Below, in pieces: positions 6,057 through 64,000 of a stretch of 64,000 bases of DNA (positions within the stretch are counted from its first letter, which is position 1; every line of letters starts with the position of its first letter). The notes under the pieces are model-generated. The model was not told the origin of the DNA and ran no database searches. It worked only from the letters and a program-made list of their open reading frames with translations. The translations under genes and the position numbers were made by a program. The stretch is from assembly GCA_047967505.1 (NCBI GenBank), contig CM106538.1; one strand, written 5' to 3'. Source of the stretch: Dipteris shenzhenensis. Its lineage: Eukaryota.

Positions 6057-6227
6057 CGTGGGGGTTAAAGGTCACTGTGCCTTTACCCCAGTTATGTACA
6101 ATACTCAAACACATATATAAATGAATGAAAAAGAAGATTAGGGTGGTTCTGCACCCACCAAAACTTGTGTGACTCTCTGTTTCTCTCTCTCACTCTTCTG
6201 TTCTTGCTTCCATTGAGAGCACTCTCA
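6057..6227 (+). repeat. 5' LTR of Copia copy 2 (171 bp)
   Basis: About 10 substitutions versus the 3' LTR; terminal TG mutated to CG; followed by AC + PBS. Confidence 0.95.
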
Positions 6228-11728: not shown

Positions 11729-11781
11729 TATGCTCACTAGTTGTTCTCCCTTAAAGGCACATTGTCCTTCAAGTGGGAGGT

Positions 11782-11966
11782 TGTGGGTGTTAAAGGTCAC
11801 TATGCCTTTACCCCGGTTATGTACAATACTCAAACACATATATAAATGAATGAAAAAGAAGATTAGGGTGGTTCTGCACCCATGGTTCTACACCCAGCAA
11901 AACTTGTGTGGCTCTCTGTTTCTCTCTCTCCCTCTTCCGTTCTTGCTTTCGTTGAGAGCACTCTCA
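11782..11966 (+). repeat. 3' LTR of Copia copy 2 (185 bp)
   Basis: TG...CA; carries a 14-bp internal tandem duplication (TGGTTCT(G/A)CACCCA) absent from the 5' LTR. Confidence 0.95.
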
Positions 11967-21227: not shown

Positions 21228-22010
21228 AAGGATTTTAGCTTCTATTGTTTTGTAGCAACATTAAAAAAACATGGTGTGTAGTAAGATTTGGTCATATATG
21301 ACTGAGATATAAGAAGCTTGGGCATTATTCTATCTGCAAATATTATGGACACAAATTTATTGGTGATGCTACTTGCATAAAGTAATATTTCTCAGCATTT
21401 AGCGCAAATATTAAGTTGTCTTGTCCATGCTCCCCAGCCAGCATGGCAATTTATTACAAGTCATATTCACAAAAAGAAAAAAGTGTGGAAATTTCCAGTT
21501 TATTAAGGGCTAATGGTTGTAGTAATGCAAGCAATAAGGTGAATAAAGATATAGAGTCAATAGACCCTCTTGGTGTGAGGTGCAAATAATCACATGCTAA
21601 GAATCAAGAAATACAATAAGGATTTTAGCTTCTATTGTTTTGTAGCAACATTAAAAAAACATGGTGTGTAGTAAGATTTGGTCATATATGACTGAGATAT
21701 AAGAAGTTTGGGCATTATTCTATTTGCAAATATTATGGACACAAATTTATTGGTGGTGCTACTTGCATAAAGTAATATTTCTCAGCATTTAGCGTAAATG
21801 TTAAGTTGTCTTGTCCATGCTCTCCAGCCAGCATGGCAATTTATTACGAGTCATATTCACAAAAAGAAAAAGTGTGGAAAATTCTAGCTTATTAAGGGCT
21901 ACTGGTTGTAGTAATGCAAGCAATAAGGTGGATGAAGATATAGAGTCAATAGACCCTCTTGGTGTGAGGTGCAAATAATCATATGCTAATAATCAAGAAA
22001 TACCAATAAG
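21228..22010. repeat. 390-bp tandem duplication covering the hAT N-terminal/BED region
   Basis: AAGGATTTTAGCTTCTATTG... at 21228 and 21618, near-identical over the whole unit. Confidence 0.95.
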
Positions 22011-26260: not shown

Positions 26261-27559
26261 AGATACCTTGGGAATTGCTTGCCAACATGAGCAATATAAC
26301 TACTTCCAAGCCTTTGACAAAGCTGCACCTTTCTTTTGATCAAAAAATCATTTCCTCACTTTAATATAGATTTTTGTTATTGGGGGAAAAATTAAGGAAG
26401 ACTCAAGAGGATGCAATGGTGGTGCCCTAGAAGGCCGTGCCTAATGGCAGTATGCCATAAGTAGGAAATCTATTAGAAATAACACTCGCTGTTCCTTATA
26501 TTTTTTAGGGGAAAACGTTTTCCCCTTCTATTTCCCATGACAATGTGACATTATACCGTTTTTGCACTTAGTCATTCTCCATCATGTAGGCATCTTCATC
26601 GCGCACATATAGAGCTCTACCCGCATGCTGTGGAGTTTTAGGATGATCAATGCCGAATTAAAGATCCTAGAAAGGGATATGTAGTGGTTACCACTGGCAC
26701 TTATGATAAGGGTCTTTATAAGTTCTTGCATGACAACATCATCCATTGCATGTGGAGGAACAAAATCAGCATGTGGCTGAATACAGACGTTTTCACACAC
26801 TCAAGCATTCTCCAACACGAAGACAACCATGAATATTTTAGGAAAGGGGATGTGGGTGCAAAAGGAGGGAGTGTGGGAAAGGTCTTAAGGAAAGTGTCGT
26901 GGGAAGCTTGCAGGCAATCGATGGCACAACTGAGAACTTGTCAAGCTAGCCACGGCACTTTCTTGTCCATCAAGGTTAGTCGTGAGCAAATAGTCCTTTT
27001 TGATATTGATAGGGAGCCATTCTGCCAGTGTAAGAAAAGTGACAAAAAATCCTTTTCTCACGATCTAGCCGGTCATACTTGCTAGTGGCGAGGGCACCTG
27101 GGTCTTGAGGAGGGGGGGGGGGGGATTGCAAAAGGAGGGAGTGTGGGAAAGAGAGCACCAAGGTCTTGAGGTGCTAAGGGCAAGTTCAGACTGTGCGGAC
27201 ACACTAGCCGTATAATGACATGGTGCAGTCTATTCGATTTTGGAATTTGTTCGGGCGGAAGGAGGCGTGGTCACCCGTGGTCCCCCCTCGCCCAAGCATC
27301 GATCGTTGCAGCTGTGGCAGAACGAAATTAGAGGTGTGAACCAGCCAATGATGTGTGAGAGAGCAAGAGTCAAATGTGTGCACCCCCTCCGAACATCGGG
27401 CCAAAGGGGGAGAGGGGGTGGCAAGAGCGAGAGAGGATGACATGAGCGTTTGAGATGGTCCCAATGAAAGTAGGGATGGTTCCAATGCGACTTCAATATA
27501 TATTATGATGATAGAAAAATAGAAATATATGCATTTCCATGACAATATAAAATAAGAAA

Positions 27560-27702: not shown

Positions 27703-29584
27703 GTTTTCTTCTTTCCTATCCCTCGCATTTTGTTTCTCCATTTGTTGCTGCCTTGCACCTTCAATCAACAATGCTATTACAGACAATCGGTCTTTACCCT
27801 TCCACGATTACATTACCCAAGCTTAATGACAATGCATGTAGGGTCTTGTATCGGCAGATCAGATCGGAGTTCCGCCACCATCGCCTTCGAGCTGTATTCT
27901 TCAGGAGAGCGTGCTTCCTGTAGAATTATTAGTCGTAGGCTGTATTTTTCAGGACAGCTTGCTTCCTAGCGACCGAAAATTGGAGAATGAATTGCCTCTC
28001 CTTGCCTTGGAAGGCGAAGCTATCTCTCTGTTGCTTAACTTTGCCTCGTTAGGCGCTCGTACATTTGGGTGTTAATGGAGTGTTTCCTCTGGAACGTGAC
28101 AATCAGCAAGTTTGAAGAGCGAATGTAGATTGTCCTTGAGAGAAGATCCTCTTTGCCCTCTCACTGTCCTTTGTATATTTGACCAAATACATGGTCTCCG
28201 TGTGAGGGCTTTTACTGAGAGTCTAGACCTTGTCTACGATTTGCGCGACCGAAATGTTCAAGACCGCCGTTCTGGCTCTTATGCTGGGAGTTTATGGGTA
28301 TCTACGTACGCGTCATGAGATGATGCCTACTTGGATTGCTATGATCTGGATCAACGTATCGTATTCAGTTTGCCTACGAAACTTGGATTTACATGATATA
28401 TAAGGAATGAGTCCGGAGTTTGGAGCTTTGCGGGATCACGTATTGATGCAGGATTCATCCTGTATTCAAGAGTTTACTATGGGGCTTCATTATTTACGAC
28501 CGCTGGATCAGAAACCAAGGATCTAGAGCAGGAACCTACAAGTCCCAAGCACCTGAATGTCTACCTCAGGCACTGGCACGATTGGGGGTCTCATGAACCT
28601 TCTGTCAATTACTAGCAGTGGCACATTATCATGTACCCATGACACGAGGATCAGGGGCCCAGTAGCTGTGGCAGAATCTGAAGCCTTGTTTTCATGGAAT
28701 GCCCTTAACATGTTTGCCACGACGTTAGAAGTGGTCATAGAGGTTGTTGTGAAAGATTAGGGGATATGTTACAGCCCAACGATATGTAGGTGACTTATAT
28801 TTGCCACGACTTTAGACTTGGTCATAGAGGTTCTGAAAGATTAGGGGATATTGAATTGACTTCAGCCAAACGATTGATGAGGGACCTGGAGGAAGTTCAT
28901 TTGAGTCCAGCGTTTTGAGCCTGTTAGGAGATCGTTAGAATCAGGTTACCTTGCATAATTGCACAGCACTGTGTGGAAGCTATGATACTACATAGGAAGG
29001 AGAGGTGTGTTGTCATGAAAGGATTTGCCGTATGATGAACTTCTTTTGTGGCTTGTTTATGCAAAGGCAAATCTCACAGAATCAATTATATTTTGTGTTT
29101 TTGCCATTGAAAGTGCCATGCTGGAATGTGGAACAAAATACAAAGCCGCTTTTGCTCTTTCATTTAGTCATGGTGTGTATTATATACTGCTTTTTGCTCT
29201 GTGTATGACTTGAGAGGTTTTAAATTTTTTTTGGACTCGAGAGGTTATGATGTCATGTTTTAGTTGTCCATTTTTTAGGATAACAATAGGTCAAGATGTG
29301 TTATAGATAGGTAGTGGGTTTGATGTGTTATTTTGAGTTCTCTAAAGATGCCATTGTGGTGGAGCCAAATAGCAACTTGCTGAACAGCTGCATTTAAAAC
29401 TGCCATATAGCTAATGGCTGGAGACAGGTGATCGTGTCACAAATTTTCCAAACTTGGCTCACATGGTCTGGCATGGTGTGAAGGAAGAGAGAGAAAGAAT
29501 GAAAGTCTTAGATCTAATCGAAAAGTGGGTGTTTAGATCATGGCAATATACACAATGAAGACATTTGGTGGGAACCAGATGTGT

Positions 29585-29633
<49 letters not shown>

Positions 29634-30459
29634 ATGTATTAACGTCTGCAGGAGGCCTCGCGGGCCTATGAGACAAAGTGCAAAACCAAAAGGTAACTCA
29701 TACAAGCCACTAGGGGCTGAAGCAAAGGGCGCACTAAGGCCTTTATTGAGTGCTATAGTGCTAAGCTAGTGAGCAGAATAGTAGAGTAGCAAAATATCTC
29801 AGAAGAGTATCAGGTGCTTAGAGCTAATGCCCAGGTTCCATGTATCCAGGAAACCTGGTGGCTCTTTGATGAGATGTGAGGAGCTCTCGTATATCTGTCT
29901 GTCGATCTATTTGTGGAGGGCATGGTCTCCTTGATCTCTAGATCCGGTGGGCTACGTCAAGGGTGGCGTCTCGTCTCTGGTGGTCACCTTTGAGGAGGGA
30001 CTGAAATAGGCCGAACTACGATCTCGTGTGCTCTGGTCCCTCTTTGTGTCTCACCTGGAGTGCGTGCCTCTCATCTAGCAGCATCGTGGTGGGGACTCCT
30101 ACTACTAGTCCATGATGCTCTCATCTCATTAAGCTCCTCTCCCTCTCCCTCAACCTCATCGGCAGCTGACTCAGATGCATAGAAATCCGTAACAAGTGTC
30201 TATGCTTCGTCAATCTCGGTGGCCTGTGGCATCAATCCTTGCTGTTCTCGGGTCTGTCGCATCAGTATATCTCTCTGTTGTCGCATTTCAATCAGATAGA
30301 GCCCAACACAAACTTGATCAGGAAAATGCATTAGCTGCGTAAGTGGACCAAAGCCATGGGTAGACACATAGAAAGTGCTCCTTTGTCTCGATCTCCTCCA
30401 TCGGGCATAGTGTGCAGATCCTCTGCTCTCTGGGTATGCAGCTCCTCTGCCTCGATCCG

Positions 30460-30509
<50 letters not shown>

Positions 30510-31521
30510 ACGTCCTCGGAAGACCTTGCGGGTCTATGGGACAAAATACACAAACCAAAAACTACAGCATGAGTTAGAGACTGAGAGTCTGTGGGGGAGT
30601 ACAACAACTCAGCCCCAGATTATTAGAATAGCATAACATAACTACATTCAGGTATTATGTAAGAGTGATCTGAATAACATGAGTTTAAGACTGAGAGTCC
30701 TTGGGTTTAGGTTTGAAATCTCTTATCAGTGCTTGCCCATCTCGGTAGACCGCCCATTTACCTTCCTTCCTTGCTTCTTTCACTTTGATGAGTTCAAAAA
30801 CTGATATATAACCCGGAGACTATCAACTATCAAGGGTGACGTATCGGCTTTGACAGTCCCCTCTGAGAAGAGTTGAGATAGCCCAGACCTTCATTGTGCG
30901 TGCTCTCATCAGCCTTTGTATCGTATGTAGTCTCCGTGTCTTTGGCAGCTCCGCGTTGTCTCTTCCTGGTGACGCACTCTGCCCTCATGTCAGCTAGCTC
31001 CTCCTCTACTCCGCTATATCCTGGGGCTGACCCAAATGCGTTGAATTCTGTGACATGTCGTGCTTGGCACAGTTCCTCCTGTTGTTCGATCTAATCTAGG
31101 TAGGGTATCTTTGTGTTGCCGCATTTCAATCAGATAGAGGCCAACATAGACCTGGTCATGGAGCCGAGAGAGTGATCCAAAACCATGCCCCTCTTCAAAG
31201 AGACAATGGTATCGTCTGCGGATTTGATAAAAGATTGGGCACGTGCATAGGAAATGCTCCTTTGTCTCCATCTCCTTTAGTGTGAGTAATTTGCAGATCC
31301 ATTGCTTCCTAGGTGTGTGCCTGCAGCTCTCCCTGCCTCGATCCTCAACTAATGTGACGAAACTGGCATTTGGCCACTACCCTTTGATACTCTTAGAAAG
31401 TGGTTTGAATCTCGGTTGGGAACTCCTTGTTCCCCGAGTTGGAATAGATCCAACCATACAATACTGTTGATCTCATTTTGTGGGAGCAAGGGGGCTGGGC
31501 ATCCAAGCTGTACTTGGGGGG

Positions 31522-31561
<40 letters not shown>

Positions 31562-32999
31562 CTATTAACGTCCATGGAAGACCAACAGGTCTATGGGACA
31601 GCACAAAACCAACTAATACATCAGTTTAGGGAGGGCACATGGCAGCTCCCATAGAGTGCAAAAACATCTCTATTTATTTAGAGTAGCTACATCTAATAAA
31701 GCATAAAAACATATAATCGGCCATACATCAATTTGAGACTGAGTCTTTTGGTTTGGATTTGAATTCTTTGATAATTGCCATGCCTTCACAGTATACTGCC
31801 CATTTTCCATCCTTCCTTGCAGCTTTAACCTTCGCTAATTCAGTCGCTTTATTCTTCAGTTAAGCTCGTGTGAGCTCCTCAGCTATCCATACCTTAGTTC
31901 CTTTCAGCTTATGTGATTGGCGAAGAACCTTGGTTTGTAGTTTACATGACTTGAAAGTGATGACGGCATGTCCCTTGGAGTGTTTGATATTAGTTGCTAC
32001 CTCATCGTCATCATCTCCATCATCATCCTTCCATTCAATGTTGGGCATGGCTGCTTTGACCTGTGCTAAAGTTTCACTAAAAGAGTCCTCATCCTTGTAC
32101 CAGTTTTCAGGAAGTCGTCCTATCCGAATCTTCAGTGAGTTTTCACATTTGGCTTCATGCTCCTTAATCTCTTCTTGAATGTTAGTTTTACTTGCCTTTG
32201 CCTTTGTCTCAGCTTCCACACTTACCTCCTTCTTGACTATTTGTACTTCAGAGTGAATGGAGTCTTTAAATGGAGATTAGTTGAGGAGTGGGTTTGGCTT
32301 CACATTTGGCTTCAGGCTCCTTAATCTCTTCTTGAATGTCAGTTTTACTTGCCTTTGCCTTTGTCTCAACTTCCACACTTACCTCCTTCTTGACTGTTTG
32401 TACTTCAAAGTGAATGAAGTCTTTAACTGTGGAGATTAGTTGAGGAGTGGGTAGGGAAGCCTTACATGCCTTCATAAATAAATACATGATTGCCTTGCTT
32501 GCCAGGTCCTTCAAAAACTGAAGTTTAGTTGTCACGGCTGCCAATTGCATCTTTAAGTCATGAATCTCTTGCTGTAAGTAAAAGATATGTCATGGTGACC
32601 AATGATAGGCCAATTTAAACCTCCTTTATAGTATGTATGTGCCTACGGGAAAGGCATCTTAGCTACAATTGTGGAGTACTGTACTCGATTGGTCGAAGTC
32701 GGTGGTGTAGAGAGGGGGGAGGATTTTGATTTCGAGGAGAGGCTAGACCTCTCCATGCTGGTCATATGTGCAGGACCCCAAGCTAACGAACGCTCGAACT
32801 GGGCCAGGGGTCTTAGCCCAATTCGAGGTTAGTTCGCTGCTAGGCTAGGCAGGAATTGAGAAGTTAGACAAGGGCAGGGAAGTAGGTAGGCGGAGAGGCT
32901 ATGAAGGTTGAAAGCAGGTGAAAGCTAAGAGGAGTGGAGAGGTTAGGTGGCAAGCCGTGTGAGGGCTGAGCGGAGGGGAGAGGCTAGGCGGCTAGGTTG

Positions 33000-33059
<60 letters not shown>

Positions 33060-33636
33060 TACTAACGTTGTAAGAGGCCTCGCGGGCCTATGAGACAAAG
33101 TACAAGCCAAAAAGTAACTCATACAAGCCATAGAGGGCTGAAGCAAAGGGTTCACTAAGACCCTTGCTGAAAGCTAAAGTGCTAAAATGCTAAACTAGTG
33201 AATCAAGTGTCCAAATACTAGAGTAGCAAAAGCAAAATAACAGAGATAGGTGCTCAGAGCTAGCACTCCTAGTACATGCTCAGGTTCTGTATATCCAGGT
33301 AACCTAGTGGCTCTCTGATGAGATGAGAGAGAGAAAGAAAGAAAGATATATTAACGTCCAGGGAGGCCTCGCGGGCCTATGGGACAAAGTACACAGAAAA
33401 CCGAACTCATATAAGCCTCAGTGGGCTGAAGCAAAGGGCATGCTAGGACCCTTGTTGAGTATTAATCTATGCTAACAAAGTCATAATCATAGTATATAAA
33501 TAGTCAACTGCAATTGCATGCATAGTGGGCTAGATCAATCTATCCAGTATCAGAAACAAACTGAAAAACAAGTCAGTCTCGGGGTTGGTGTAGGCCATCT
33601 TCTCCCGGTCGTATTGATGCCCTCTAGGCCCTGGTA
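29585..33636 (-). mobile_element. Tandem stack of five RTE-X-like non-LTR retroposon 3' ends separated by (GA)n microsatellites
   Basis: Shared terminus (T/C)TAACGT..GA(G/A)..ATG(A/G)GACA next to GA runs at ~29640, 30508, 31566, 33063, 33352; ORF2 C-terminal RICTLCPMEEIETKEHFLC (~30365-30422) and METKEHFLCTCPIFYQIRRRY (31014-31271). Clade assignment from recalled motifs. Confidence 0.85.
31558..33003 (-). mobile_element. ORF1-only (HAL1-like) non-autonomous retroposon
   Basis: C-rich leader, broken ORF 32550-31728 with coiled coil, IRIGRLPE, AVITFKS...KVLRQSHKLKGTKVWIAEELT...KVKAARKDGKWAVY (L1-type ORF1 RRM/CTD pattern), then ~170 bp UTR and the shared tail; (TC)n on both sides; no ORF2. Confidence 0.7.
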
Positions 33637-35297
33637 TGTGCCATGTAGCTTTAATTATTGGCACTTAGGTCACCTACTCCTTTTAGTGTCTTATGACACC
33701 TAGTACTAGTGGTACCACTAGGACACTAGGTCCTAGGGTTCTCTTTCATTTTCATTCTAGTTGATTTGACGGCTTCCACTTCTTGCTCCACTCTTTTGCA
33801 TCCTTTTGCTTCCGTGAGCCTATAGTGGTATCAGAGCACTTCCTACTTGTAGATTCTTTTGCAGGCTGAAGGTGTCTCGTGTCCGTCATCTATTGGTAGG
33901 ATTCATTTACAGACTCAGCTGTGCATTTAGCCATTGTTTGGCTTCGATTTTGGGAGCAGACATTGCAGTAGATCTGCAATTTTTGGTGACATTTGGGGCT
34001 TTTGCATTTGGGCTACGATTTTGCAGGTAGATTGCAGATTTGCAGACAATTTGGGGTTTTTCCTGAATTTGCCCTATTTTTGGCTCAGCTTTGCTCTACA
34101 AATTGGGGCTTTTGGGTCTATTGCAAGCAGATTGCAGGATACTTTCAAATTTGCAGTGAATTTGGCAAGAAATTGCAGGCCATTTGATCACATTTGCAAA
34201 TTACAGCTTAATTTGGGGCTTTTCCAGATTTGGACAGCAAGTCCTATTTTTTTGCAGTTGCAAGCCTTGAGGCTATCTTTTGGGTCACTTTGTTAGTGCA
34301 TTTTTGACTTGTCCTATTTGCAATGGCTGGCAACAATCATGATTTATTTGGCGTTCTTCGTGAAGATGATAAGTTGGATGGCACCAACTATCCGATGTGG
34401 TCTTATCTCATGAATATATTCTTGTTGCAAGACATTTTTGGAACATTGTTTCTGGGATTGATCTGAGGCCAGCCAATACTGCAGTGGCTGCCCCTAATGC
34501 TGGTGCCTTTGCAGAGGGGACTCCTCTTGATGCTTTATCCTCTAGCACCCTGTTGCTGCTCCTCCAACTCAGGAACAAACAAGATGGGATGCCAGAGATG
34601 CAAATGCACATTCCTGTATTGCTTTATCATGCAAGAGAATCATTATTCCACACATCCGGTCATGCAGGACAGCAAAGGATGCTTGGGATAAATTGGCTTC
34701 TCTTTATCAGATTCGCAATGAGTCACGTGTTGCATATTTAAGAAGGCAATTGCAGGAAGTCAGCATGAATGAAGGTGACTCTATGGATGCATACTTGACC
34801 AAGGTCAAGGACCTCATGGAACAACTTGCCATTTATTGATGAGGTGGTGACAAATTCTCAGCTTGTCAGTACCACATTGAATGGGCTGCTAGATACATAT
34901 CAAGGGTTTGCTACAACCCTTCGAGTAGTGGCCATGGGTAATCCAAACCACTACTCTGATCAGCTAGTCACTTTGCTTTTGCAGGAAGAGCAAAGTCGTG
35001 CTAATAGGCAAGCTACTATTCCTGATCATGCATTTACTTCATCAGCAGAAAGGAAAAGGCAAGGCTTCCAAGCCTATGGGTAAGCCTAAATATGCGCCTA
35101 ACAGTGGCATTTCCTCCAATGTATCTCAAAATACAGCAGATAAGTCAAAGAAGAAAAGATGCAACTATTGTCGCAAGCCAAGGCATGAAATTTCAGAATG
35201 TAGGAAGTGCATTGCTTCGGAGAAGAAAGCAGGATTGACAGTAAATGCCTCACATGCAATTGAATCCCATGAGCCAGCAGATGCCTCACATGCACAT

Positions 35298-35765
35298 TGA
35301 TACGCTCACTTTTCTATTTTCACTGTTCCGTCGAATTACGGGCAATACGTAGTCACAGGCGTTGGCATCATAAGTTTTCCTCCCAGCCTCTCTTGTAGAT
35401 TGCATGCACACAAAAGATACGTAACTTTTATTTCCTTCATGCCTATCCACAAGCCCACAATTCCCTAGATAGTTCCCCCTTGCCACATGTCATCATTTTA
35501 GACCTTTAGCTTGGTACACCATTTACCCCTCTCTTGGGGCACAATTAAAACATTTGCCCCTTGGCATTATCACACATTTAGGTGCACCTAGGCCTTAGCA
35601 CTCAGAACCACCTAGTCGATGCCAATACACCCTCACCTAGGACCTTGGCAGTTACTTCCCTTGACCATTTTATTTACGCACATAAACTATTACAAAAGTC
35701 GGTCATCTAAGAGAAAATGCCCACCGATCTTTCCGAGGTCATGCTATCTCGGCTAGAGCATAACA
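35298..35765 (-). repeat. Chromovirus 3' LTR
   Basis: TG...CA, ~98% identical to 41462-41929. Confidence 0.97.
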
Positions 35766-35777
35766 TTCCTTCTCTCT

Positions 35778-38700
35778 TCAAGCATCAACGTCCTCGATGA
35801 TGAAATTTGGGAACACTCTCCGTAACTGGTATACGGATTCCCAGGTAGCTTTCGATAGAGGTAGACCATGCCATGCAACCAACACCGTGGGTATCTTCCG
35901 ATTGCACACTTGCATTGTTCCTCGGTCCAGGATTCTTGTTGGCTTGCGTCTTGCATTATCCTCTATCTCCTGAAACAAAACCACACCTTCGATTAGTAAG
36001 TCACCGGTATGCAAAAATTTTTTCAAACGAGAAACATGAAACACTGGGTGCACCTTACACCCCGGTGGTAATTCTAATTTATAGGCTACCTTGCCTATTC
36101 TTTTTAGAATTAACCATGGCCCACAATATCGAGGTGATAACTTAGTACACTCTCCTGCAGTCAAAGACTTAGAGTGCGAAGGAACTCTAAGAAAAACCTT
36201 TTCTCCTTCCTTAAATTCTCTAGCGGATCGGTTTTCATCCGCATACGCCTTAGCTCTATCCATTGCTTGGTGGATGTTAGCTCTCGCAAGTGCTAGCATC
36301 TCCCGCATTTGAACCACAAAGTTCGCGGCACTAGGCACTTTCTGAGGTATTCCAACTATAGTTGGATTCGCAGGCCTATAACCATAGTTCATCTCAAACG
36401 GACTGAACCCTGTAGAGGAATGTTTTCTATCATTGTAGGCAAACTCTAACAATGGCAACCACTTGTCCCATGTATGTTGCCTCAATGACATATATGCTCT
36501 AAGCATATTCTCTAAAATTTGGTTGATTCTTTCTATCTGACCATCCGTACGGATGATCCCCACTACTCATTCCCAACTCAGTCCTTAGTGTCTCAAATAC
36601 CGCGGTCCAATAATGACCGGTAAATTTGACATCTCTGTCTGACACTATGGATCCGGGTAATCCATGTAGACGAAATATATGTCTAATAAACAAATCCGCC
36701 ACTTGCGGGGCACTAACAGACTCTCTAGTTGGAATGAAGTGAGCCATCTTGGTAAGACGATCAACCTACAAGGATAGAATCATATCCACCTTGTGTTGTA
36801 GGCAGCCCTACAATAAAGTCCATGGAAATGCTCTCCTACTTAGTCGTATCTACAAGGGCTGTAAGAGTCCGGGTGGCTTCACCCGCTCTGCCTTACTTAC
36901 CTGACATGAAAAACAACGTGTCACATATTGATGAATATGCTTTTTCATCTTTGGCCAAAAGAAATCTCGCTTCACGAGATCATATGTCTTCATGACTCCT
37001 GGATGTCCCGCACATGGGCTATCATGGCACTGTTGAATGACTTTCTGCATGAGATCATTCTGACTAGGTACTACTACCTTGCCATTTCTTTTCAGCACAC
37101 CATCCCTTATGGCATATCTTGCATAAGTTTGGCCTTTTCTGGATGCCAGGTCATCCTTTTCCTCGGGTTTCAATACATGAGCCTTAGGCCAAAGGCTCTG
37201 GACTAACTCGTCCATCTTTTGAGTTTCTCTTATCTCGGCCATTAGAGCACTCTCTAACACCGTGAAACTCATGTTATGCATAATGCGTGACAACGCATCA
37301 TCAACTTTATTATCCTTCCCTCTTCGGTACCGAATCGTCAAATTAAACTCCTGCATGAGTTCTGCCCACCTAGCTTGGCGGCCTCTCAAGTCAGTTTGTT
37401 TACAAAAATGTTTCAGAGTATCACGATCAACATCCACATAAAACTCTGATCCATACAAATAATGTCGCCATGTTTTCAAAGCATGGACAACAGCATACAA
37501 CTCTAATTCATGAGTTGGCCAATTTCTTTGAGAGGGAGAAAGCTTCTTGCTTTCAAAGGCTACTGGCCTTCCCTCTTGGAGGAGAACTGCTCCTACCGTA
37601 ATGCCACTTGCATCGGTTTCTAGGAACAACGGTTTCTGGGATCAACTATTTTTAACACCGGTCCTGTGACCACAGCTTGTTTTATGGTGTTAAAACTTTC
37701 TTGTTGATTTTGTCCCCATATAAAAGGTACTTTCTCTGAGGTCAGATCAGTCAATGGCGATACTATTTCGGAATATCCTTTGATATGCCTTCGATAAAAT
37801 TGGACAAATCCCAAGAATGATCGCAAAGCGGTCAGACTTTGAGGGATTGGCCAAGTCAGTATCGTAGCCACTTTCTTTGGATCCATTTCCACCCCCTCTG
37901 GAGTAATTATGAATCCTAAATATTCAAGTCTAACCATACACAGTATAGTTTTCTTCTTATTTACATAAAGACTGGCTTTCCTCAAAGTAGTGAACACTAT
38001 TCTCAAGTGTTCACGATGCTCAGTAATACTTTTACTGAATACAAGAATATTGTCAATAAAATGTACTACAAACTTTCTGATATACGGACGTAGTAAATCG
38101 TTCATAAGCATGACGAATCTAGCTGGAGCATTGGTAAGTCCAAAGGGCATTACCAAAAACTCATAATGACCAAGCCTACTTCTAAAAGCGGTTTTATGCA
38201 CATCCTCGACTCTAATACGGATCTGATGGTAGCCACACTTAAGATCTATCTTACTGAAAATTACGGCCCTATGTAATGCATCTAGCAAATCATCGATCTG
38301 AGCCATCGGATACCTGTGCTTAATAGTGATATTATTCAATGCTCTGTAATCTATACAGAGACGGAAAGTATTATCTTTCTTCTTCTTTAATATCACTGGC
38401 GAAGCAAAAGGTGAAAAACTGGGTTGAATCTGCCCCAGCTTGAGGTATTCTTCCAGTTGTCTTTGCACCTCAGCTTCTTCTGTAAAGATTAATCTATAGG
38501 GAGGTCTATTTACACGTTCTGTCCCCGGGATCAGCTCAATTTTATGTTGAACATTCCGCTCTGGAGGTAACCCATAAGGTAACTCATCCCTAAAACAATC
38601 AGAGAACTTCTCCGATATCTCTTTAGCTAACTCGGCCATTTTTCCATCTTGGGTAGCCTCAGTGCTAGCCGATGCATCATCAATCGACTCTATCGATGCT

Positions 38701-40599
38701 ATACACAGACACAGAAACTCTTTTGGAGTCTTTTGAATTTCCATGGCTGAAATCAATGGTCCTCGAGGTAAATCCTTTTCACCTCGCAAAACATATTCTA
38801 CCCCGTTTATCTTGAACTGGTAAATATGCTTTTTCCAATCAATGGCTGGATTTTTTTAAAAATGCCAAGCCATGCCTAGGGCTATATCTGCGTGAGCTAG
38901 CCTGGTCAATTCAAAGTCCAGCTTCTCAACATAGTCATGAATTCGAAGTTCCAATTGGGTAACCCTCTGGTCCCATACTTCAGTTGAACTTCCGTCTGCC
39001 ATCCTGACTGTATAAGCATAATCAGACGGACTAGTTTTTAACTTGAGCCTCTTAATAAGCTTCGAGTTAATTACATTGTGTGTTGACGCTGAGTCAAACA
39101 ACACAATCACATCATGATTGGCTCTTCCCCCGCTTCGCCACAGTGCCCCGGGATGCCTTCGCTCGGTACTAGTCCCACTTCCTTCCACGCTTTTCCTTTC
39201 GGGGTGGTGTGCCGTAAGTGAGGCGGTGGGGCCCCACCCCACCAAGCCGAAAACGACTTGCCCTTTCATTTTAATCAACTCGGGCTCATCGAAAACCGTA
39301 TATCCCGTTGCTGCGGGCTTTGAAAGGATGTTATCAGGTGCACCGCTTACTAACTTAGTAACAGACACACTTAACAATACAGGTACTAACCTTTGAGAAG
39401 GTCCCGCCAATTGCGTCTGCATATGTTCCGCATTGGGACTCTCCTACATTCCCGTGTTGCATTCAGATATTATCATATTGGCCGTGCGACGATCGTTGTT
39501 TAGTGGACAATCTTTCCATTGATGTCACTGAAGGCAGCCGAAGCACAATCCCTCTTTTCTAGCTTTTTCTTTTTGCTGAGGGGTGAACGAGGACTTTGAC
39601 CAAGCCCGGGCTGCCATTGGAGTTACTTTTCTTTTCACTCCAACGGTGGTACTTGTCTTTGCTGGTCCCTCAACCGGCTTCACCTGCTTGGTTTGGCCAC
39701 TTGGCTGCGAGACACTTGTCTTTGAAGTCCATTTCCTCTGAAATCCCCCTTTTCTCGGGTATTCATGCTGAGTCCCTGCCTGCACAAACCCACTATGTCT
39801 GCCTCCTGGCATCCTCGTAGTTCAGGGCTACTGCAATGGATTCATCTAATGTAGTCACTTATTCAGCCCGAACTTCCATTTTAATCTTGTCGTTCAGTCC
39901 ATAGATATAGTCTTTCAAGTGAACCGACATAGGGAGAGGGTCTGTTATCTTCATAACACATTCCCTGAACTTGTCAGTGTACTCTGCCACCGACAAATTC
40001 CTTTGGCGAAGGTTTCTTTAAGCATCCCAAGCTCGGGACTCTTCGTCAGGTGGAAGAAAGTGTTTCTTAAATTCAGCTTTAAACCCTTCCCAGGTGGTAG
40101 GGGCAACTTGATCTTTCTGTTGCTTAATCCACCATCTATCCGCTGCCTCAATAAACAGGTGAGTGGTCTCGTGGATTTTCTTTAGATCAGATCTGATTTC
40201 ACAAATGGCGAAGGCTTCTTCCCACTTGTGTAACCAAACCTCGATCACATCAGAACTGCGCTCGGTCATCCGGCCAGCGTACTTTTCCGGTCTATAGTTG
40301 GCAATATTAGGTACCTTGACCTTTGCACGTTCTGATGAGTGTATATTGGGATCTGGCTCTGCTGGAGCTTTGCTCTTTTCATTTCTAGATGGTCTAGCCG
40401 ACAAGGCTTGTACCATCTCTCTAATTTCATTTTGATTAGCGTTCACTTGAAGCTGCTGGTTCATGATCTGCTGTAAAGCATCTTCTAATACATAAATCCT
40501 ACCTACCAGAGTAGGTGTTGTATGATGGGACACTTGTTGTGTAGATCGTGCTCTAGATTCACCAGGATTTGCCCTGGAATCTTGTCCCTCTTCCTCCAT
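35778..40599 (-). pseudogene. Chromovirus gag-pol with chromodomain, a few frameshifts and stops
   Basis: gag 40599-40018, knuckle CFGCLQ*HQWKDC, protease VLFDSASTHN, RT RLCIDYRALN / MPFGLTNAP / FIDNILV, RNase H ETDASG, integrase HDSPCAGHPG, YCGPW (GPY/F), chromodomain LVAWHGLPLSKATWES. Confidence 0.95.
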
Positions 40600-40770
40600 T
40601 CTTTAAAAAGGGAAAATAGATTTTTTTTTTTCACTTCTAATTTCCCTCTGTTGTACAGGAATAATTCGATTGCAAACTGGAAACTAAAATTTTATACAGA
40701 AGGAAAAAATGATGCTCCCTGGAAGCTCCACGAATCCCAGATGTCCAAATTTCCTTCTTCTGCCAAAGTC

Positions 40771-41036
40771 TTTGCGAAAGTGAAGATCTTCATCATCATT
40801 GATGCTGACCATGACCCAAGGTCGTTTTACTCCGATTGCCTCAACTGCTTGGATAGCTGCATTTATACCTTCCCTTATTGCGCGCACTACTGACGGATCC
40901 GGAGCACAATTGATGCAATCAACGCCAACAAGCGTGTAAATCAAGGATAGGTTGCGAACGTCAGCCACCTCCTCAAAACTTGCTCCGTAGATAAGCTTTA
41001 CCCACGTTCTTGCTACCAAGGAATCCTTGGGAGAAA
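40771..41036 (-). pseudogene. ldpA: Captured N-terminal fragment of an LdpA-like Fe-S protein gene in the chromovirus 5' leader
   Basis: SPKDSLVARTWVKLIYGASFEEVADVRNLSLIYTLVGVDCINCAPDPSVVRAIREGI...KRPWVMVSINDDEDLHFRK matches, from memory, the LdpA family pattern W.KLICGASF....R.L.L.Y.LAG.DCID.AAD..V...PW.M.S.ND.ED.HFRK. Confidence 0.85.
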
Positions 41037-41461
41037 ACTTGGATAGAAGGCAGATGAGGTGGTGAAAGCTTCGCAGCGGGTGGGAATGGTGGATGGATAA
41101 TTTGCTGAAATGGAATAAGTAAACGAGCGTGAGAGGCTGTCATCACCAAGAGCCCGTTAATGCTGGTTGCCGCCCATCGTCAGCCTACCCCGCTGATTTC
41201 CCAGGTCTCTTAGACGTAGTCCCTCGCAATGGAATCAGCCTGCTCTTCTATCACCTGCCTACGGGAACCTTGCCCTGCGACAGCTGTACCCGCTCTTGTA
41301 GCGAATCCATCAACGGCTCAGCCGCTCCATCAATGGAAGCCCGCACGAATAAAGCCATCTAAAACACACGTCGTTCGCCTCACACCCCCAATACGTCCTG
41401 CGCCTTCTTGATACGTAACTCATATGAGTCCCCTTGTCCAGCCTGAGGCTCTGATACCAAA

Positions 41462-41929
41462 TGATACGCTCACTTTTCTATCCTCACTGTTCCGTCGAAT
41501 TACGGGCAATACGTAGTCACAGGCGTTGGCATCTTAAGTTTTCCTCCCAGCCTCTCTTGTAGATTGCATGCACACAAAAGATACGTAACTTTTATTTCCT
41601 TCATGCCTATCCACAAGCCCACAATTCCCTAGATAGTTCCCCCCTGCCACATGTCATCATTTTAGACCTTTAGCTTAGTACACCATTTACCCCTCTCTTG
41701 GGGCACAATTAAAACATTTGCCCCTTGGCATTATTACACATTTAGGTGCACCTAGGCCTGGGCACTCAGAACCACCTAGTCGATGCCAATACACCCTCAC
41801 CTAGGACCTTGGCAGTTACTTCCCTTGACCATTTTATCTACGCACATAAACTATTACAAAAGTCGGTCATCTAAGAGAAAATGCCCACCGATCTTTCCGA
41901 GGTCATGCTATCTCGGCTAGAGCATAACA
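41462..41929 (-). repeat. Chromovirus 5' LTR
   Basis: TG...CA; adjacent to PBS complement GGCTCTGATACCA. Confidence 0.97.
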
Positions 41930-43339
41930 CACATGCTCTCGAGGATGATTGGGCATGGGCTGTCCATTGCTCTTTTGATCCCTCCAAAGTTGATGCATTC
42001 TTTTCTACTAATGATGCTCAGTCTTGGTATTTTGATAGTGGTGCTTCCAAGCACGTAATCTCTTGCAGACAGTTGTTTCATTCCTTGGCTAATGCTCCTC
42101 GAGGGGGGACTGTCACATGTGCTAATAATGCTTCCTATGCTGTAAAAGGAATGCTTGGTATATGATCTTCATGATGACGATGCCATAGTTCTCATTGGCA
42201 CTTTGCAAAAGGGGCTTTATCACCTTGATCATCACTCAACTGCATTTTCTATTGAAGCATTTGCTATTTCAGGTTCACAGCTTGCTGAAACTCATCTTTG
42301 GCATGAGAGAATGGGTCATCTCAATTATAGAGCTCTTGCCAAGTTACATTCACAAGGCATGTCAAATGATGTACCTCAAACTCACACAGTTTCCAAACAT
42401 GTGTGTGAGGGTAGATGCATCGGTTTCTTTTTCAAAAGGATTGTTCAAAATTCTCACAAAGGAAATTGCAGCTAGTGTACAGTGATGTCTGTGGCCCAAT
42501 GAGGACAAATGCCATTGGAGGGTACAAATGTTTCATGACTCTAATTGATGACTTCACAAGATATTGCTGGGTATATGCTTTAAAAGCCAAATCTGAAGTG
42601 TTCTCATGCTTTCAGAGGTGGCTGAATATGGTTTAGAATGAATCATGATGCAAGCTTGTCACCCTCAACACAGATAGGGAGGGAGAGTATATGTCAAAGG
42701 AGTTTGATGCTTTTTTGGCTTCACGGGGCATTGTTCACTCATGCACTACTCCTTAACTCCTTAGCATAATCCTGTTCGTGAAAGAAAGAACAGGTCCACT
42801 GTGGAGATGGCCAGATGCATGCTTAAGGCCAAGTCATTGCTTAATAAATTTAGGCTTGATGCAGTGATGTGTGCCAACTATGTGGTGAATAGATCACCTA
42901 CAAGGGCATTGAGGACTGTTATACGTTATGAAGCATGGAAAGGCAGGAAGCCTTCACTTTCACACATGAGAGTTTTTGGGTCTTTTGCATATGTCGATGT
43001 ACCATCTCAGCTGAGACATAAGCTTGATGATAAGCCAATCTGAGACATAAGCTTGATGATAAGGCAATCAAATGCATAATTATTGGTTACAGCCAGGAGA
43101 GTAGAGGGTATTGGTTGTACCAACCAAATACTGGGAAGATTATTGTCAGTAGAGATGTAATCTTTGCTGAACATTCAGTTGACTTTGACCAGCAGTATGA
43201 GCCTCCTGCAGGCCCTCCAACAAGCAATGATCAGCCAGCACCCCATGTTGATTTGCAGGTTCCTGTTCCAGCACAAAATGATCCCAATATTCATGATGCA
43301 GTGATTGAAGAAAGAGCTGTCAGTAGACAGCAAAGGCAA

Positions 43340-44439: not shown

Positions 44440-45520
44440 TCACTATCACATGGGAGGTGTTGGATAGTTGGATTGCTCTTTGGCATCGGGACATCATATA
44501 GTGAGCTCGCATAGGTGTGCCAAACCCCTGGATCTGTGATGGCTTCCCCTCGGATAAGAGCCCCCATCCAATGGTAGAGTCTCCTCCTTGAAAGGATTGT
44601 ATCACCTCCTCCATCTTGTCTGTGAGGAAAGCGTGCCTCTTATGATGTGTCAGTCGTGCAATCCGCTGCTCTCATGTGTCATAAGATGGCCCAAGACTGC
44701 TCACGCGTAAGGTAAGATCTCATTTGTCTGCACTGGTCATCATACCAGGATTCCGAGGCATCGTCCCCACTGAGGCATGTGCTGCAAATCGTGTCATGGG
44801 AAAATATCTAGCCGCAACGTCCTGTACGATTGAGACAAAGATATCTGAGGCATGGGTGAGGTTTGCAAGGTTTGCATCACCTCCAAGTAGATCTAGAAGC
44901 TCACGTGCTTCATGACTCACGTAGATTGGGTCAAGGGCATGGTCAAGGTGGACTTGGACACGGGTGTGGGTGTGGGTGGGGCTCTCCCTGTGGATGGCAT
45001 GGTAGCTGAGATGCTAAAAGCTAGGTATGAGTTATCAGTCCGGAGCGGGGGAGGAGGCACAATGAAATCATATATTCGTGGTACAAAGGTCAAGATGCCC
45101 ATTCGATAATCCAGTATATTGGTACCCCCACCATGTGGGAAGCACGTGAGCCCGCCAGATAATGGCCATCTCTAGAGACCGTTGTATATAATCAAGTTGT
45201 GGACAGCTCCCAGCTCAAGTGGATGCTGCCCATATTTTGTCATATGTGGTGCATCTGCCGAGTGTCTCACTATCCCAAGCTTTGCTGGGTCTAGCTACGG
45301 TATTGTGAGAGAGTCGTTCTCAAGATCCAACAAGCCCACTTGTCTATCTCCTGTTCGTGTATTGAAGTCACCAAGAAGGAGGATATCTCCATGTTTGGAG
45401 AACTCCATGATGTTATCATATATCGTCTCATAGGGGCTTTATCCTTTTGTGGTGACCTCATTTGCATAGGATGATATATTTGTGTGGAAGTAGCACATTG
45501 CAAGGAAGATTGGACGTGCC
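44440..45520 (-). mobile_element. LINE ORF2 APE-endonuclease and linker fragment (RTE-X-like)
   Basis: Minus frame reads EFSKHGDILLLGDFNTRTG...LIIYNG...TCFPHGGGTNILDY...RTDNSYLAF (GDFN, DY and decayed SDH motifs). Confidence 0.8.
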
Positions 45521-48234
45521 TCTAGTAAGTAGAATCATACCCACACATAGAAGTTCAAAGAGTCTAGCCTTGGCCCTCCAGAGACCAGAGTCATCTGGAA
45601 TCTGGATTCTGATACATAGTGTCAATGATCAAACATCATGATCAAAGGTAGCAGGTAGTAGAAACTTGGAAGTAGGTACTACACCGAAACATCAAAGGCA
45701 AAACATCATAGAAGAAAAGGCTGCCACAGCCCGGAAATAAAGCTGAAAATTGAAATGCATCACGATTCACAACCGATGAGGCTCAAGCCTCAAGCTCCAG
45801 CGTGCATCCTCATCCTCATTCTCTTGCTCATCCTCATCCTCATCCTTATTTGCATTAGTGCCATCCTCCTCCTCCTTGAGACCATCCTTGAGGCCAACCA
45901 CAGCCAAAGTCGGCGAACAGTGTACAGAGTCCAGATTAGCAACGTATGGATTAGAATAATGCTAAAAATGTGTTTTTCAAGGTTTTGGCCAGGCACAAAA
46001 TCGATCCCCCCTCCCAAACAAAACACCCCCCCCACACACACACACAACAAAAAACCAAACCACACCCAAAAAACACACCTCACAAAACAAAACCCCGCAC
46101 CCCCCCCCCCCCCCCCAAAAAAAAAAAAAAAAGAAGTACGGAAGGCCATATAGACGGAAAAAACATCCGTATGCGTATGGATGCAACTATGTACCCACAT
46201 ATGTTGTGCATGCTCCTCTCTCCGTACTATGGATATGAATGGCCTTAGGTGTGATCTGCAGCTTCTTGGAACTAGACTATGCGTTTGGTTACCCCAATCA
46301 CACGTATGAAATTCCTCTTTCCATACCGGTATGGAAAGGGGCAAACATACTCGACTTTTTGTTGGTTAAAAAGTTGGGGTCCTAGACCTTTCAAAAATCA
46401 TATTTTTGCAAAAAGCACTTGTCTTTCATGACTTTAAAGTTAATCCTAGTTTGAAGTTGAAATTTCTGTAAAACTCTGACAATTAAATTTATACATTCTT
46501 GCTTTTTGTTTTGTAAATTTAGGGTCACGTATGATTGAGCTGAACCATACTCCAATCATACTTCTGTACCGGTATGTGTTTTCCGTATGGAAATGTATCA
46601 GAAAAGCTATGGCTACAGAAGCTGAGAGACTGCCGAGGACTGCTAGAGACACTGAAGGGGCTGCTGCAGGCCCTGCAAGGGCAGCACATAGGGCAGCCAA
46701 CAAGGGCAGCAGGCCCTGCAAGGGCAGCACATAAGGCAGCCAACAAGGGCTGCCAGGGCTCATTTATAGGCCTGCAGCAGGTTGGTCATACAGTCTGGGT
46801 CAGTCGGCCGTACAGACCAGGGTCTGGTCGGCTAGGGCAGGGATCTGGTCGGCGAGTTGCAGATCTGTGGGCGTCTGGCCCTATAAAGGCTCTCATTGGG
46901 GAGTCATAGTTTGGCTGCAGAGCTGGTGGAAAATATCTGATCATGTACCTCTAGCTCAAAAGTCCTAGCTTCTAGTACCATGTCAGAACACGCAGTGGAA
47001 AATTGAATCAAATTGCGCAAAAGATCACACTTGGAAATGTAGATCCTAATGGAGAACATACATGTAACATGAACCTCCATGCTGGAATAGACAGCAAGAT
47101 ATGGCAATCCACAAAAGACTGTCCAAGAGAGGACTCATGGCAACCGACAAAAAACTGTCCAAGAGAGGACTCAAAATGTATCTCACATAGTGCACTCACA
47201 AACCACACTACGCGGACAGCTGGGTGCTGCCCACTACTGCTGGAACTGAGGCTGCAAAGATTTTGCCCTAATCTGCTGCTTTCTCCCTCTGCTGCATGCC
47301 TCCTATGAGGTCTTTGGTGGCTATGGGAGAAGCCCAAAACTTAGTATGCCAGTTCCCTTTCTGCCTCTGTGTGTTCTGCTCACTGAATATGAGCCCTACA
47401 CACAAGCTAAGGTCTACTGCTGCTACTGGTGCCTTTGTCTCATCCTGCTGGAACCTCTGTCTGCGCCTTCTATAATGCCCTGGTGCACTTCAGAAGTCTG
47501 GAACTGATGGCGGACTGCTGCACCCTTTCTTCTGCCTTCTCCTGGTCATGCTTGTGCCTGGGGATGCACTCTTGAAGTGCCTAAAACAGTCTGCAATGTT
47601 GTTCTGCAAACAGACTGGTCGACAGCCAATCAGACAGCCCACAGACTGGGCCGATGCAGTCTGTCCCTTCCTGGTCAGCAGGCCAGTCTGCAGGCCTATT
47701 TAAGGCCCTGTCTGCACGCGCTTCTCTGGGATTCTGCCCCAGCCCTGGTGCAGTCTTCAGACCCTGCGCTGTACTTACTGCAGCACCTGTCCAGTCCTGC
47801 AGTACTGCCGACTAGCTCAGCATCAGTCTGCTCCAGCCACTGTACTGCCGTGCTGTCTCTGCTGTTGTGCTGGATTCGCTGTTTGCTAAGCCTTTGTTCT
47901 CTCCCTTCATTCCCATGGTCAGCCCCCAGATCCATGGCAGTTCCCTGTGGACTGTTCAGCCTGCTGTAGAGGGTCAAACAAACCTGAGAAGGATTCTCTA
48001 TGCTGCCCACATGGCAGCTTGTGTGCTGCCGATATGGCAGCCTCTTCATCCCTCCATCTTCCTCTTCCATGGGACAGGTGTCACTCCTCCATGCTCCCCT
48101 CATTTGGGGGCTTACAAACGGGGAGTTGCATACCCCCTCTCAACGAGTTGTTATGAGTCGCAGCCCACTCCTTGAAGTATGCACAACTCTGTTCTGGAAG
48201 AGAGCTGAGGAACACATCGAAGGCATCTTCTAAG

Positions 48235-59846: not shown

Positions 59847-60051
59847 GTAAGTCTTTCACGTCCCAATTTAAGTATGATTGATGGCTTGGGGTTATTGTTT
59901 TTTATGTTTACTGCTTGTTCCACTTTCTCAGTAGAGCAATCTTTGTGTTTCTCAATGTTTAGACACTACCAGTCCCTTGAATTGTGCAAATCAGTTTCTT
60001 TGATGTCTTTGTTATTTTCTGGGTAAGCAAGTGTAAGATTTCCTGTATCAG

Positions 60052-62642: not shown

Positions 62643-62700
<58 letters not shown>

Positions 62701-62829: not shown

Positions 62830-64000
62830 ATTAAAGTCTTTGGAAGACCAATGGGTCCATGAGACTGTGAAAAACCTGATATAATGAGCTGTGGTAGTGG
62901 AGCTAGTAAACGAGCATCCACACCAATGCAGAATGCAAAAAATGCAAAATGGCAGTACTAAGTCCTAAGTACTAAGTACAACATAGTCATGTCGATAGTC
63001 GACTATATATCAATCTCAGCATCATCATCATCATCATCATCATCATCAGCATGACATCAGGATGGATGAGGCAGTGGAGGCATGAGGTTGGCAATAGAGT
63101 GCTGTCGGCCCCTCAAAGGTGCAGTCGTGGTACATCTCCTGGTCGTAGGTCTGCGTCTAACCAGGGCCATTGTGACCCTCGTCGGTCGGGCTCTAACTCT
63201 AAACAAGGAGGGGATGTCCCTAAGTATGATCTGTGTGTCAACCCTTTGTTTGAGCTGTCGGGTCACATGCTCCAGGTCACGGTCATGTCGAGGTCTCGTC
63301 TCGTGGGGGTCTATGTGATTTGGCTGAAAGAACTTCGTGATGGCGCTCTGAGAGGTATTAGTCGAGGAAGAAGTCAGCTCCAGTCTCCGTGCTCGTAGTA
63401 TCCTCTTGCGGTGTCTAAGCACGTCATGAATGAAACCTGCCAAACACCGTTGGTTTGGGTATGACATGTCCAATCATAATGGTCCTGTAGTTCTCCGGGT
63501 TCATAGGATCCCCTGCCTTGTGAAAGGGTGAGATATTGTTAATGGTCTAGGTGCGTGGAAACCCCAAATAAACAGCTTCATTAAATAGCTTTGCTAAAAT
63601 CGGGGCTAGGAGGTTAATCCCATATGCAATGAACTCAGTGCATAGTCCCTCATGATCCTTCGCTCGGCCATTCTGAAGTTTCATTACAGCATCCTTTACC
63701 CCCTCCCTAGTGAAGAGGGTGCAAGATGTGGGACGTGGCATATGTGAGAGGTTAGGGACTGGCTGATTTGGGATGCCATAGATTGTGCGTGCATAATCAA
63801 ACTACACATGAGTGTCAGTGAGTGGTGAGGGGGACCGTCCCTCTAGAAATCTCCGCCAAAAGTCCTTAGAGTTGAACAGAATGTTTAGTAGCTCCTCCTC
63901 GTTCCGGCGAACAAAGTCAAGTTTCTTCTTGCGTACTATTCAAAGGTACTCGCGTAGCATCTATGGTTTGCTCGGAAGATTGTTTTTGGTTTCGAATATG
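62827..64000 (-). mobile_element. RTE-X-like LINE, 3' part with internal deletion, continues beyond window
   Basis: RT N-terminus KLQNGRAKDHEGLCTEF...LAKLFN...PFHKAGDPMNPENYRTIMIGH joined near 63465 to C-terminal MSYPNQRCLAGFIHDVLRHR; same tail motif next to (GA)n. Confidence 0.85.

Follow-up and report, generated by a model that had tools for sequence, protein, structure and literature searches.

A two-stem hairpin beside short-repeat tails at the 3' ends of decayed LINEs in a stretch of Dipteris shenzhenensis DNA

Why should one short hairpin recur six times beside GA-rich microsatellites within 64,000 nucleotides (nt) of DNA? The question is raised by a stretch of Dipteris shenzhenensis contig CM106538.1 (assembly GCA_047967505.1), referred to here in its full length as the window, for which an earlier, sequence-only reading had listed six hairpins and placed them at the 3' ends of retroposons anchored in microsatellites. 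Most likely, the hairpin is the 3'-terminal RNA signal of a fern-centred clade of long interspersed nuclear elements (LINEs) of the type that pairs an apurinic/apyrimidinic endonuclease with a reverse transcriptase (APE-RT). The copies are named by their start on the + strand: E1 (29644), E2 (30512), E3 (31570), E4 (33067), E5 (33356), and E6 (62836).

Six hairpins and the element bodies behind them

Each of the six strings is present in the window, letter for letter, at the position listed in Table 1. They had been presented on the + strand, where a GA-rich tract (a short one of the (AGAA) type in the case of E5) ends a few bases before every hairpin. The element strand of all six copies is the minus strand, and when read in that direction each copy runs from the hairpin through a conserved six-base linker into a TC or TTTC tail, with no poly(A) after the hairpin in any copy. 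The earlier placement stands in six of six cases, the retroposons being LINE-derived bodies and the microsatellite their short-repeat tail.

A profile hidden Markov model (HMM) found the six copies at E-values of 1e-5 or better, with the next-best match in the window at 0.18. A covariance model was also built, as the sequence-only reading had suggested, and scanned over 93,492 bases; it returned 11 matches, namely its 10 training copies and the outside locus L006, with no further match in the 64 kb of the window up to an E-value of 5. One should keep in mind that the six window copies match both models by construction, the models having been built from them. A generic descriptor of a perfect two-stem hairpin gave 35 rows in the window, of which four are these copies; the shape alone is common, and the non-random part is the recurring sequence and its constant position. 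A ribozyme or other Rfam RNA was considered and rejected, as no Rfam model matched anywhere in the window at its gathering score, and the three matches within 29500-33700 (E-values 1.7-9) all fall far under it. As expected for a plant element, the hairpin pattern had no match in viral and prokaryote sequence collections, and protein scans of such collections gave no confirmed locus.

Table 1. Coordinates of the six hairpins and of the element bodies that they terminate
Feature	Coordinates	Strand	Remarks
E1 hairpin	29644..29674	-	linker 29638-29643; (TC)n tail 29585-29637
E1 body	29638..30465	-	5'-truncated autonomous-type LINE; 5' end abuts E2 TC tail
E2 hairpin	30512..30542	-	(TC)20 tail 30466-30505
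E2 body	30506..31523	-	ORF2/ORF1 chimera; 5' end abuts E3 TC tail
E3 hairpin	31570..31599	-	(TC)18 tail 31524-31559
E3 body	31560..33002	-	ORF1-only element of about 1.44 kb; 5' end abuts E4 TC tail
E4 hairpin	33067..33096	-	outer stem damaged; (TC)27 tail 33003-33057
E4 body	33058..33327	-	270-nt 5'-truncated family A copy, 78% to E1; 5' end abuts E5 tail
E5 hairpin	33356..33385	-	(TTTC)n(TC)n tail 33325-33349
E5 body	33348..33460	-	last 115 nt common with family A
E6 hairpin	62836..62865	-	G·U at inner pair 1; (TC)16 tail 62795-62826
E6 body	62830..64000	-	internally deleted LINE; continues past window edge

Judging by homology, the hairpins are the 3' ends of decayed copies of one APE-RT LINE clade, the named relatives of which are ferns. 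All six bodies are LINE-derived and share one orientation, with homology to open reading frame (ORF) 2 or ORF1 in E1, E2, E3, and E6, and an untranslated region (UTR) common with E1 in E4 and E5. Pieces of the window match the ORF2 of L004, a full-length element on a metagenome contig, by tblastn at E-values of 3e-9 to 4e-32, and no ORF2 in the window is intact. E1, E2, and E4 have distinct internal start points and a common 3' end in hairpin and tail, the pattern of 5' truncation with a fixed 3' end.

In E1, tblastn places an ORF2 C-terminus with a CCHC knuckle at 30431-30254 and a weak continuation at 29964-29836, followed by the 3' UTR that we call family A. By sequence, E1, E4, and E5 are three truncated copies with this one UTR, two of them with remains of ORF2; farther upstream, E5 is unrelated to family A and runs towards a motif at 33826 resembling the primer-binding site of a long terminal repeat (LTR) element. 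The sequence-only reading had proposed that an autonomous family and its parasites share the signal. The sharing is real, since the full-length L004, the ORF1-only E3, E2, and E6 all end in the hairpin, but E1 and E4 are ordinary truncated autonomous copies, E5 has the same UTR, and none of the three is a parasite. A tRNA-headed short interspersed nuclear element (SINE) was rejected as well: the window holds no tRNA gene that could form an RNA polymerase III head, and E4 starts within E1-like sequence.

The remaining three copies are of other kinds. E2 carries a C-terminal part of ORF2 (approximately 31523-30845, collinear with E1), leaves it about 50 codons short of its end, and continues in a short ORF1, of which the final 35 codons (30795-30688; 86-89% identical to protein P0007) are present together with that ORF1's UTR and tail. 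A permuted order, ORF2 before ORF1, might be read from this copy; we rejected it in view of the early exit from ORF2 and of full elements, in which ORF1 comes first. No homologs of the E2 ORF2 piece were found among 86 candidates. E3 consists of a leader, a broken ORF1 (homology 32577-31734) with a 150-bp internal duplication (32142-32293/32299-32452), a UTR of about 130 nt, and the hairpin, which begins at 31599; a search of E3 with 186 ORF2-clade proteins gave no match to an ORF2 remnant. E6, the 5' end of which lies beyond the window edge, joins ORF2 residues 390-553 (63939-63454) to residues 1093-1145 (63497-63321) in the numbering of L004.

Two more fragments of the clade occur on the minus strand. 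The first, at 44487-45549, is a decayed endonuclease and linker piece (37% to L004 ORF2, E-value 8e-32) with no hairpin nearby. The second, at 61075-62030, includes the linker and the start of the RT (61123-61669), has its 5' side after a degenerate TC tract (about 62002-62027), and, lacking a hairpin, stops close to an (ATC)n run.

The broken ORF of E3, when used as a query, drew 62 proteins, many of them 230-270 amino acids (aa) long; ten were looked up, and those with names came from Adiantum capillus-veneris (two) and Psilotum nudum (one). Five ORF1 homologs of 196-269 aa, represented by protein records only, lie on contigs of 1.4-1.7 kb. When the homolog P0006 was modelled (predicted local distance difference test score, pLDDT, 85.9), the model's match was the human LINE-1 ORF1p trimer, at an E-value of 5e-6, and all nine structure matches under 0.001 are human LINE-1 ORF1p; on this model, ORF1 has a predicted L1-ORF1p fold. 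A separate case is P0035, a 377-aa Psilotum nudum transcript product with an ORF1-like C-terminal domain behind a long N-terminal region unlike that of other homologs, which is possibly a domesticated or chimeric ORF1.

Scanning metagenome contigs with the ORF1 family gave eight loci from 91 candidates, and ORF1 precedes ORF2 in L001-L005. In L004, an ORF1 of 359 aa is followed by an ORF2 of 1235 aa with Exo_endo_phos (PF03372) and RVT_1 (PF00078), both above cut-off, and a CCHC knuckle. Among the 120 matches listed for this ORF2, a close group of 19 relatives stands at 52-81% identity and the rest at no more than 40%; named members of the close group are from Adiantum nelumboides and Pteridium aquilinum, which points to a fern as the source of the window. 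In L002 and L003, a young 5' part seems to have been joined to an old 3' part during assembly, so the 5' and 3' ends of each were taken separately and not as marks of a single insertion. In an RT tree of 50 rows, from which a motif filter had excluded 13, L004 sits on another branch than E6 (which covers 29% of the columns), the two lying on opposite sides of the deepest split in an 18-row group (Shimodaira-Hasegawa-like approximate likelihood ratio test, SH-aLRT, 92). The E3-type ORF1 group is distant, with weak support, from the ORF1 of the single autonomous subfamily sampled. Solved R2 and L1 RTs are about equally far from these RTs, at 70-79 bits. Going by patterns in its RT and C-terminal motifs, the clade may be RTEX.

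Two observations on these relatives may be added. More distant ORF2 proteins (P0121 and P0143) have a PHD finger between the RT and the C-terminal zinc motif, and precomputed domains place one in P0153, P0169, P0174, and P0185 too; none was found in the seven close-group ORF2 proteins scanned. The autonomous leader opens with telomere-repeat-like motifs (L001:100-140, L002:705-745, L003:110-150, and L004:33-65), which we take to be of the telo-box type and which are possibly an internal promoter.

Short-repeat tails and the head-to-tail array

From E5 to E1, five copies form an array, head to tail and in a single orientation, in which the tail of the next copy directly adjoins the 5' end of E1, E2, E3, and E4 in turn. 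For the truncated E1, E2, and E4, the adjoining TC cannot be the element's own leader; therefore, the choice is between insertion into TC tracts and an RT that jumped from template to template. We favour repeated insertion, in which base pairing between the (UC)n tail and a nicked GA strand would be the guide. The E1-E4 junctions fall inside TC tracts, where a target-site duplication is indistinguishable from the tract itself.

GA tracts of at least five units cover 258 of the 64,000 bases in the window. With the interrupted tract 29585-29629 taken as one, there are seven; six of them are element tails, and the other is located within a tandem duplicate of the E6 tail region. If one counts GA/TC tracts of at least 30 bases, five of six are element tails and the sixth is in the duplicate of one tail. 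None of the six TC tracts of the + strand has a hairpin. The duplication in question, at 62575-62828, repeats in tandem (93%, about 125 bp) a compound CA/TA/TG/AG microsatellite block to which the E6 tail belongs. Outside the window, L004 starts after the tail of another copy.

Template jumping, in which the RT passes from one template to the 3' end of a further RNA, would derive the array, but not the hairpin, from one or two events and make TC merely a tail and, at full-length 5' ends, a portion of the leader. It is known for R2, E2 is itself a chimera of two templates, and the 3' flank of L004 has no (TC)n. Such an origin sits badly with E1, E4, and E5, which are only about 78-80% alike, and with L001, L002, and L003, which start directly after (TC)n in three different flanks with no hairpin upstream. 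We regard it as unlikely for the array, though far from negligible.

Insertion guided by the tail, for its part, has to contend with two sets of observations: the 5' side of E5 is not TC-rich, and in L002, L003, L004, and L006 the 3' tail is (TTTC)-like and is not followed by (TC)n. All six window copies and these four loci have TC or TTTC tails; a microsatellite-type tail in place of poly(A) is a feature of RTEX, but one that occurs in other clades too.

Pairing, covariation, and a possible reader of the hairpin

On the element strand, the motif comprises a 4-bp outer stem, an internal loop of 3 nt and 4-6 nt, a 5-bp inner stem, and a variable loop of 4-5 nt, followed by the short conserved linker and (UC)n or (UUUC)n. 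The letters of the internal loop and linker are nearly invariant, and the terminal loop is the most variable part. Pairing was counted with the stems anchored by hand in the six intact copies (E1, E2, E3, E5, E6, and L004): all 54 stem cells are paired on the element (sense) strand as against 52 of 54 on the opposite strand, and the addition of four damaged copies makes this 83 of 90 against 81 of 90. The G·U wobbles favour the sense strand, two G·U states being valid on that strand only. At inner pair 1 of E6, the + strand presentation of the earlier reading had concealed such a wobble, as the A/C mismatch of copy 62836 becomes G·U when the element strand is read. That reading had rightly described E4 as partly broken; two of its outer pairs are lost.

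Among the intact copies, six of the nine stem pairs are invariant. Outer pair 4 is U-A in three copies and C-G in three; inner pair 3 is G-C in two, A-U in three, and G·U in one. Just outside the outer stem, a U·G in the four other intact window copies is matched by an A-U in E6 and is unpaired in L004, so that the covariation amounts to two double-sided stem changes and a third just beyond the stem. The two stem changes assort separately (E1, U-A/G-C; E5, C-G/G-C; E2 and E3, C-G/A-U; E6, U-A/A-U), and the outer pair differs even inside UTR family A, between E1 and E5. Shuffling gave a p of approximately 0.01 on the six intact copies, which are related, and their 45-nt sense-strand pieces fold into both stems at z-scores of -1.7 to -2.3. 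A two-stem RNA structure is likely.

Several results weigh against placing much trust in the covariation. It is confined to two columns, all in-stem compensations are transitions, the sample is small (11 copies), and the shuffle p rises to 0.125 on four lineage representatives. In the raw MAFFT alignment of 10 copies, 26 of 500 shuffles reach the covariation score, and in the model alignment 18 of 500 do; RNAalifold predicts no pairs on the MAFFT alignment. Gaps are out of register in both alignments, which lowers their covariation counts. In 71-nt windows, the sense strand folds no better than the + strand. The independent compensatory changes claimed by the sequence-only reading hold insofar as the two changes assort separately, but the covariation, while consistent with the stems, is too sparse for significance once relatedness is allowed for.

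The same motif terminates elements elsewhere. L004 has it at 5205-5236, with the linker and then a (TTTC)n tail after it; over the last 39 nt, L004 and E5 are 92% alike. Decayed versions terminate L002, L003, L006, and L008. In P0036, from another record, a short ORF1 runs through about 85 residues into a stretch fitting the hairpin and a TC-type tail; back-translation from the protein suggests that this read-through encodes both. As the sequence-only reading had noted, the UTRs upstream diverge: a comparison across five lineages (A, E2, E3, E6, and L004) shows the 110 nt before the hairpin to be unrelated, with z-scores of no more than 3.5 between them and 17-35 within A, so the last 37 nt or so are conserved amid UTR turnover.

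What, then, would read the hairpin? We think it probable, by analogy with known LINEs, that ORF2p reads it as a cis signal ahead of target-primed reverse transcription. The element RNA would terminate in the hairpin and repeat, as the anatomy of the copies indicates. ORF2p would require and bind the hairpin and in this way select its template, as in stringent LINEs. The endonuclease would then nick the GA strand, and the freed end would prime reverse transcription by pairing with the (UC)n tail, such that TC tracts already present, among them the tails of copies inserted earlier, would be favoured and arrays of one orientation, such as that from E5 to E1, would build up. Finally, RNAs that retain the last 40 nt or so could be mobilised in trans; on this proposal, that stretch suffices to ride along, which would account for E3 with its ORF1 alone, for the internal deletion copy E6, and for E2, the ORF2/ORF1-only chimera.

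The hairpin might instead be a real RNA structure for forming or stabilising the 3' end of a non-polyadenylated transcript, as a terminator or exonuclease block. Its position at the extreme end of the unit, the lack of poly(A) in every copy, and a loop that is free to vary would all suit such a role; the nearly invariant letters of internal loop and linker suggest a specific reader, and the LINE 3' stem-loops described in PMC4176376 are RT-binding sites. As a substitute for RT recognition this role seems quite unlikely to us, though the two may not be mutually exclusive. One could also suppose that a primary-sequence motif is conserved and its pairing incidental, the compensations being one or two inherited events spread by tail exchange. 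The invariance of most stem pairs and the p on lineage representatives are in line with that idea, and E2 demonstrates tail exchange. It is nonetheless improbable, given that all stem changes in the six intact copies preserve the pair, including the two G·U states valid on one strand only, and that the outer pair changes within family A. A DNA-level hairpin of a DNA transposon (a Helitron terminator or the end of a miniature inverted-repeat transposable element, MITE) would likewise be short, GC-rich, and close to the element end, but it is extremely improbable and contradicted by bodies made of LINE ORF1/ORF2 remains, by the lack of an inverted terminal copy in the window self-comparison, and by G·U-type changes that point to RNA.

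Recognition by ORF2p, if correct, could be part of a wider picture: an old fern LINE ecosystem united by a motif of about 37 nt. Autonomous elements would find their way to TC microsatellites through pairing of their tails and start new ones; an ORF1-only lineage of long standing, one more independent 'half-LINE' next to HAL1, HeT-A, and Ag-Sponge, would persist across fern families with the hairpin alone and swap tails with its host; and a large share of the long GA/TC repeats in fern genomes would stem from these elements. This picture in its entirety is offered tentatively, as possible but doubtful. Should the link between long GA/TC tracts and element tails seen in the window hold genome-wide, GA microsatellite markers of ferns would often lie at the ends of multi-copy elements, which bears on marker design and repeat origin. 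The hairpin provides a short handle for studying template selection in a plant LINE clade for which we found no such prior description, and a probe for truncated, deleted, and ORF1-only copies that protein searches miss. Whether a parasite competes better for the RT when it supplies ORF1p in cis could also be learned from an ORF1-only parasite of a LINE that depends on the hairpin.

The rest of the window contains other repeats. Two Copia-type LTR retrotransposon copies (1-4361 and 7565-11950) are 87% alike across some 4.4 kb; repeats resembling LTRs lie near 4206-4347, 6058-6228, and 11783-11967. A Gypsy-type element at 35298-41940, with 479-bp LTRs that are 97% identical, is apparently nested in the Copia-type element to which the primer-binding-site-like motif at 33826 belongs. 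An AT-rich stretch has a 390-bp tandem duplication (21228-22010, 95%) beside 69-bp and 56-bp arrays. Pfam gave weak hints of host exons, both below cut-off, at 26642-27085 (PTEN2 C2 domain, E-value 0.018) and 59513-59881 (RING finger, E-value 0.01).

Comparison with known systems

Of the systems that invite comparison, Kibi belongs to the Tx1 group of LINEs. Our literature search found no account of this hairpin or of fern LINEs that are ORF1-only or clustered in TC; Repbase, subscription journals, and fern-genome supplements were outside its scope and may hold these families. The hairpin adds a member to a known type of 3' LINE stem-loop, and the ORF1-only partner and the clustering in TC tracts are its more notable accompaniments.

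That type is best represented by the stringent LINEs UnaL2 and ZfL2-1/ZfL2-2, which, as described in PMC4176376, are APE-RT elements ending in a two-part stem-loop with a short-repeat tail directly after it. ZfL2 depends on its stem-loop, to which the part of ORF2p between endonuclease and RT binds (PMC4176376). The present elements belong to another clade, and the binding demonstrated there is here proposed by analogy. It weighs against a common mode of recognition that, in the same account, ZfL2 specificity resides in the loop, whereas here the loop varies and the internal loop and linker are conserved (PMC4176376). Closer in host, the maize and sorghum L1 lineage 'monocot 1a' and its ZmSINE partners are reported to combine a plant LINE, a conserved 3' hairpin with compensatory changes, and non-autonomous derivatives (PMC3472496, PMC3747384). 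As far as those reports go, these are of the L1 clade and conserve other letters, whereas the copies described here have TC/TTTC tails, and no tRNA gene occurs in the window.

An RTE-X label has been reported in Ceratopteris (PMC6890710) and Marchantia (10.1101/827881), and in Ectocarpus the non-autonomous RTEX-N1 has its 3' end in common with RTEX-1/2 (PMC12477816). RTEX elements resemble ours in being two-ORF APE-RT elements with a microsatellite tail, and the label has been given to elements of ferns and liverworts; in the portions of these accounts that deal with them, the algal tails listed exclude TC, and no hairpin, TC preference, or ORF1-only derivative is described (PMC3472496, 10.1101/827881, PMC6890710, PMC12477816).

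The fish LINE Kibi, an APE-type element too, inserts in TC microsatellites (PMC3812793). Its targeting is thought, according to that source, to be endonuclease-based, whereas here it may operate through pairing of tail and target and is not absolute, as E5 attests (PMC3812793).

Lastly, LINE derivatives that keep ORF1 only are described for three clades, namely HAL1 (L1), HeT-A (Jockey), and Ag-Sponge (CR1) (PMC5786205, PMC5753468). E3 differs from these, as they are there portrayed, in coming from a plant clade outside the three and in having a structured tail instead of poly(A) (PMC5786205, PMC5753468). Possible further ORF1-only 3' ends, and at most indirect hints that this form has multiplied into a family, are the tail of E2, the read-through of P0036, and the five short homologs on small contigs. 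In its general plan of a 5' region, an L1-type ORF1, and a 3' tail with no ORF2, E3 resembles all three (PMC5786205, PMC5753468).

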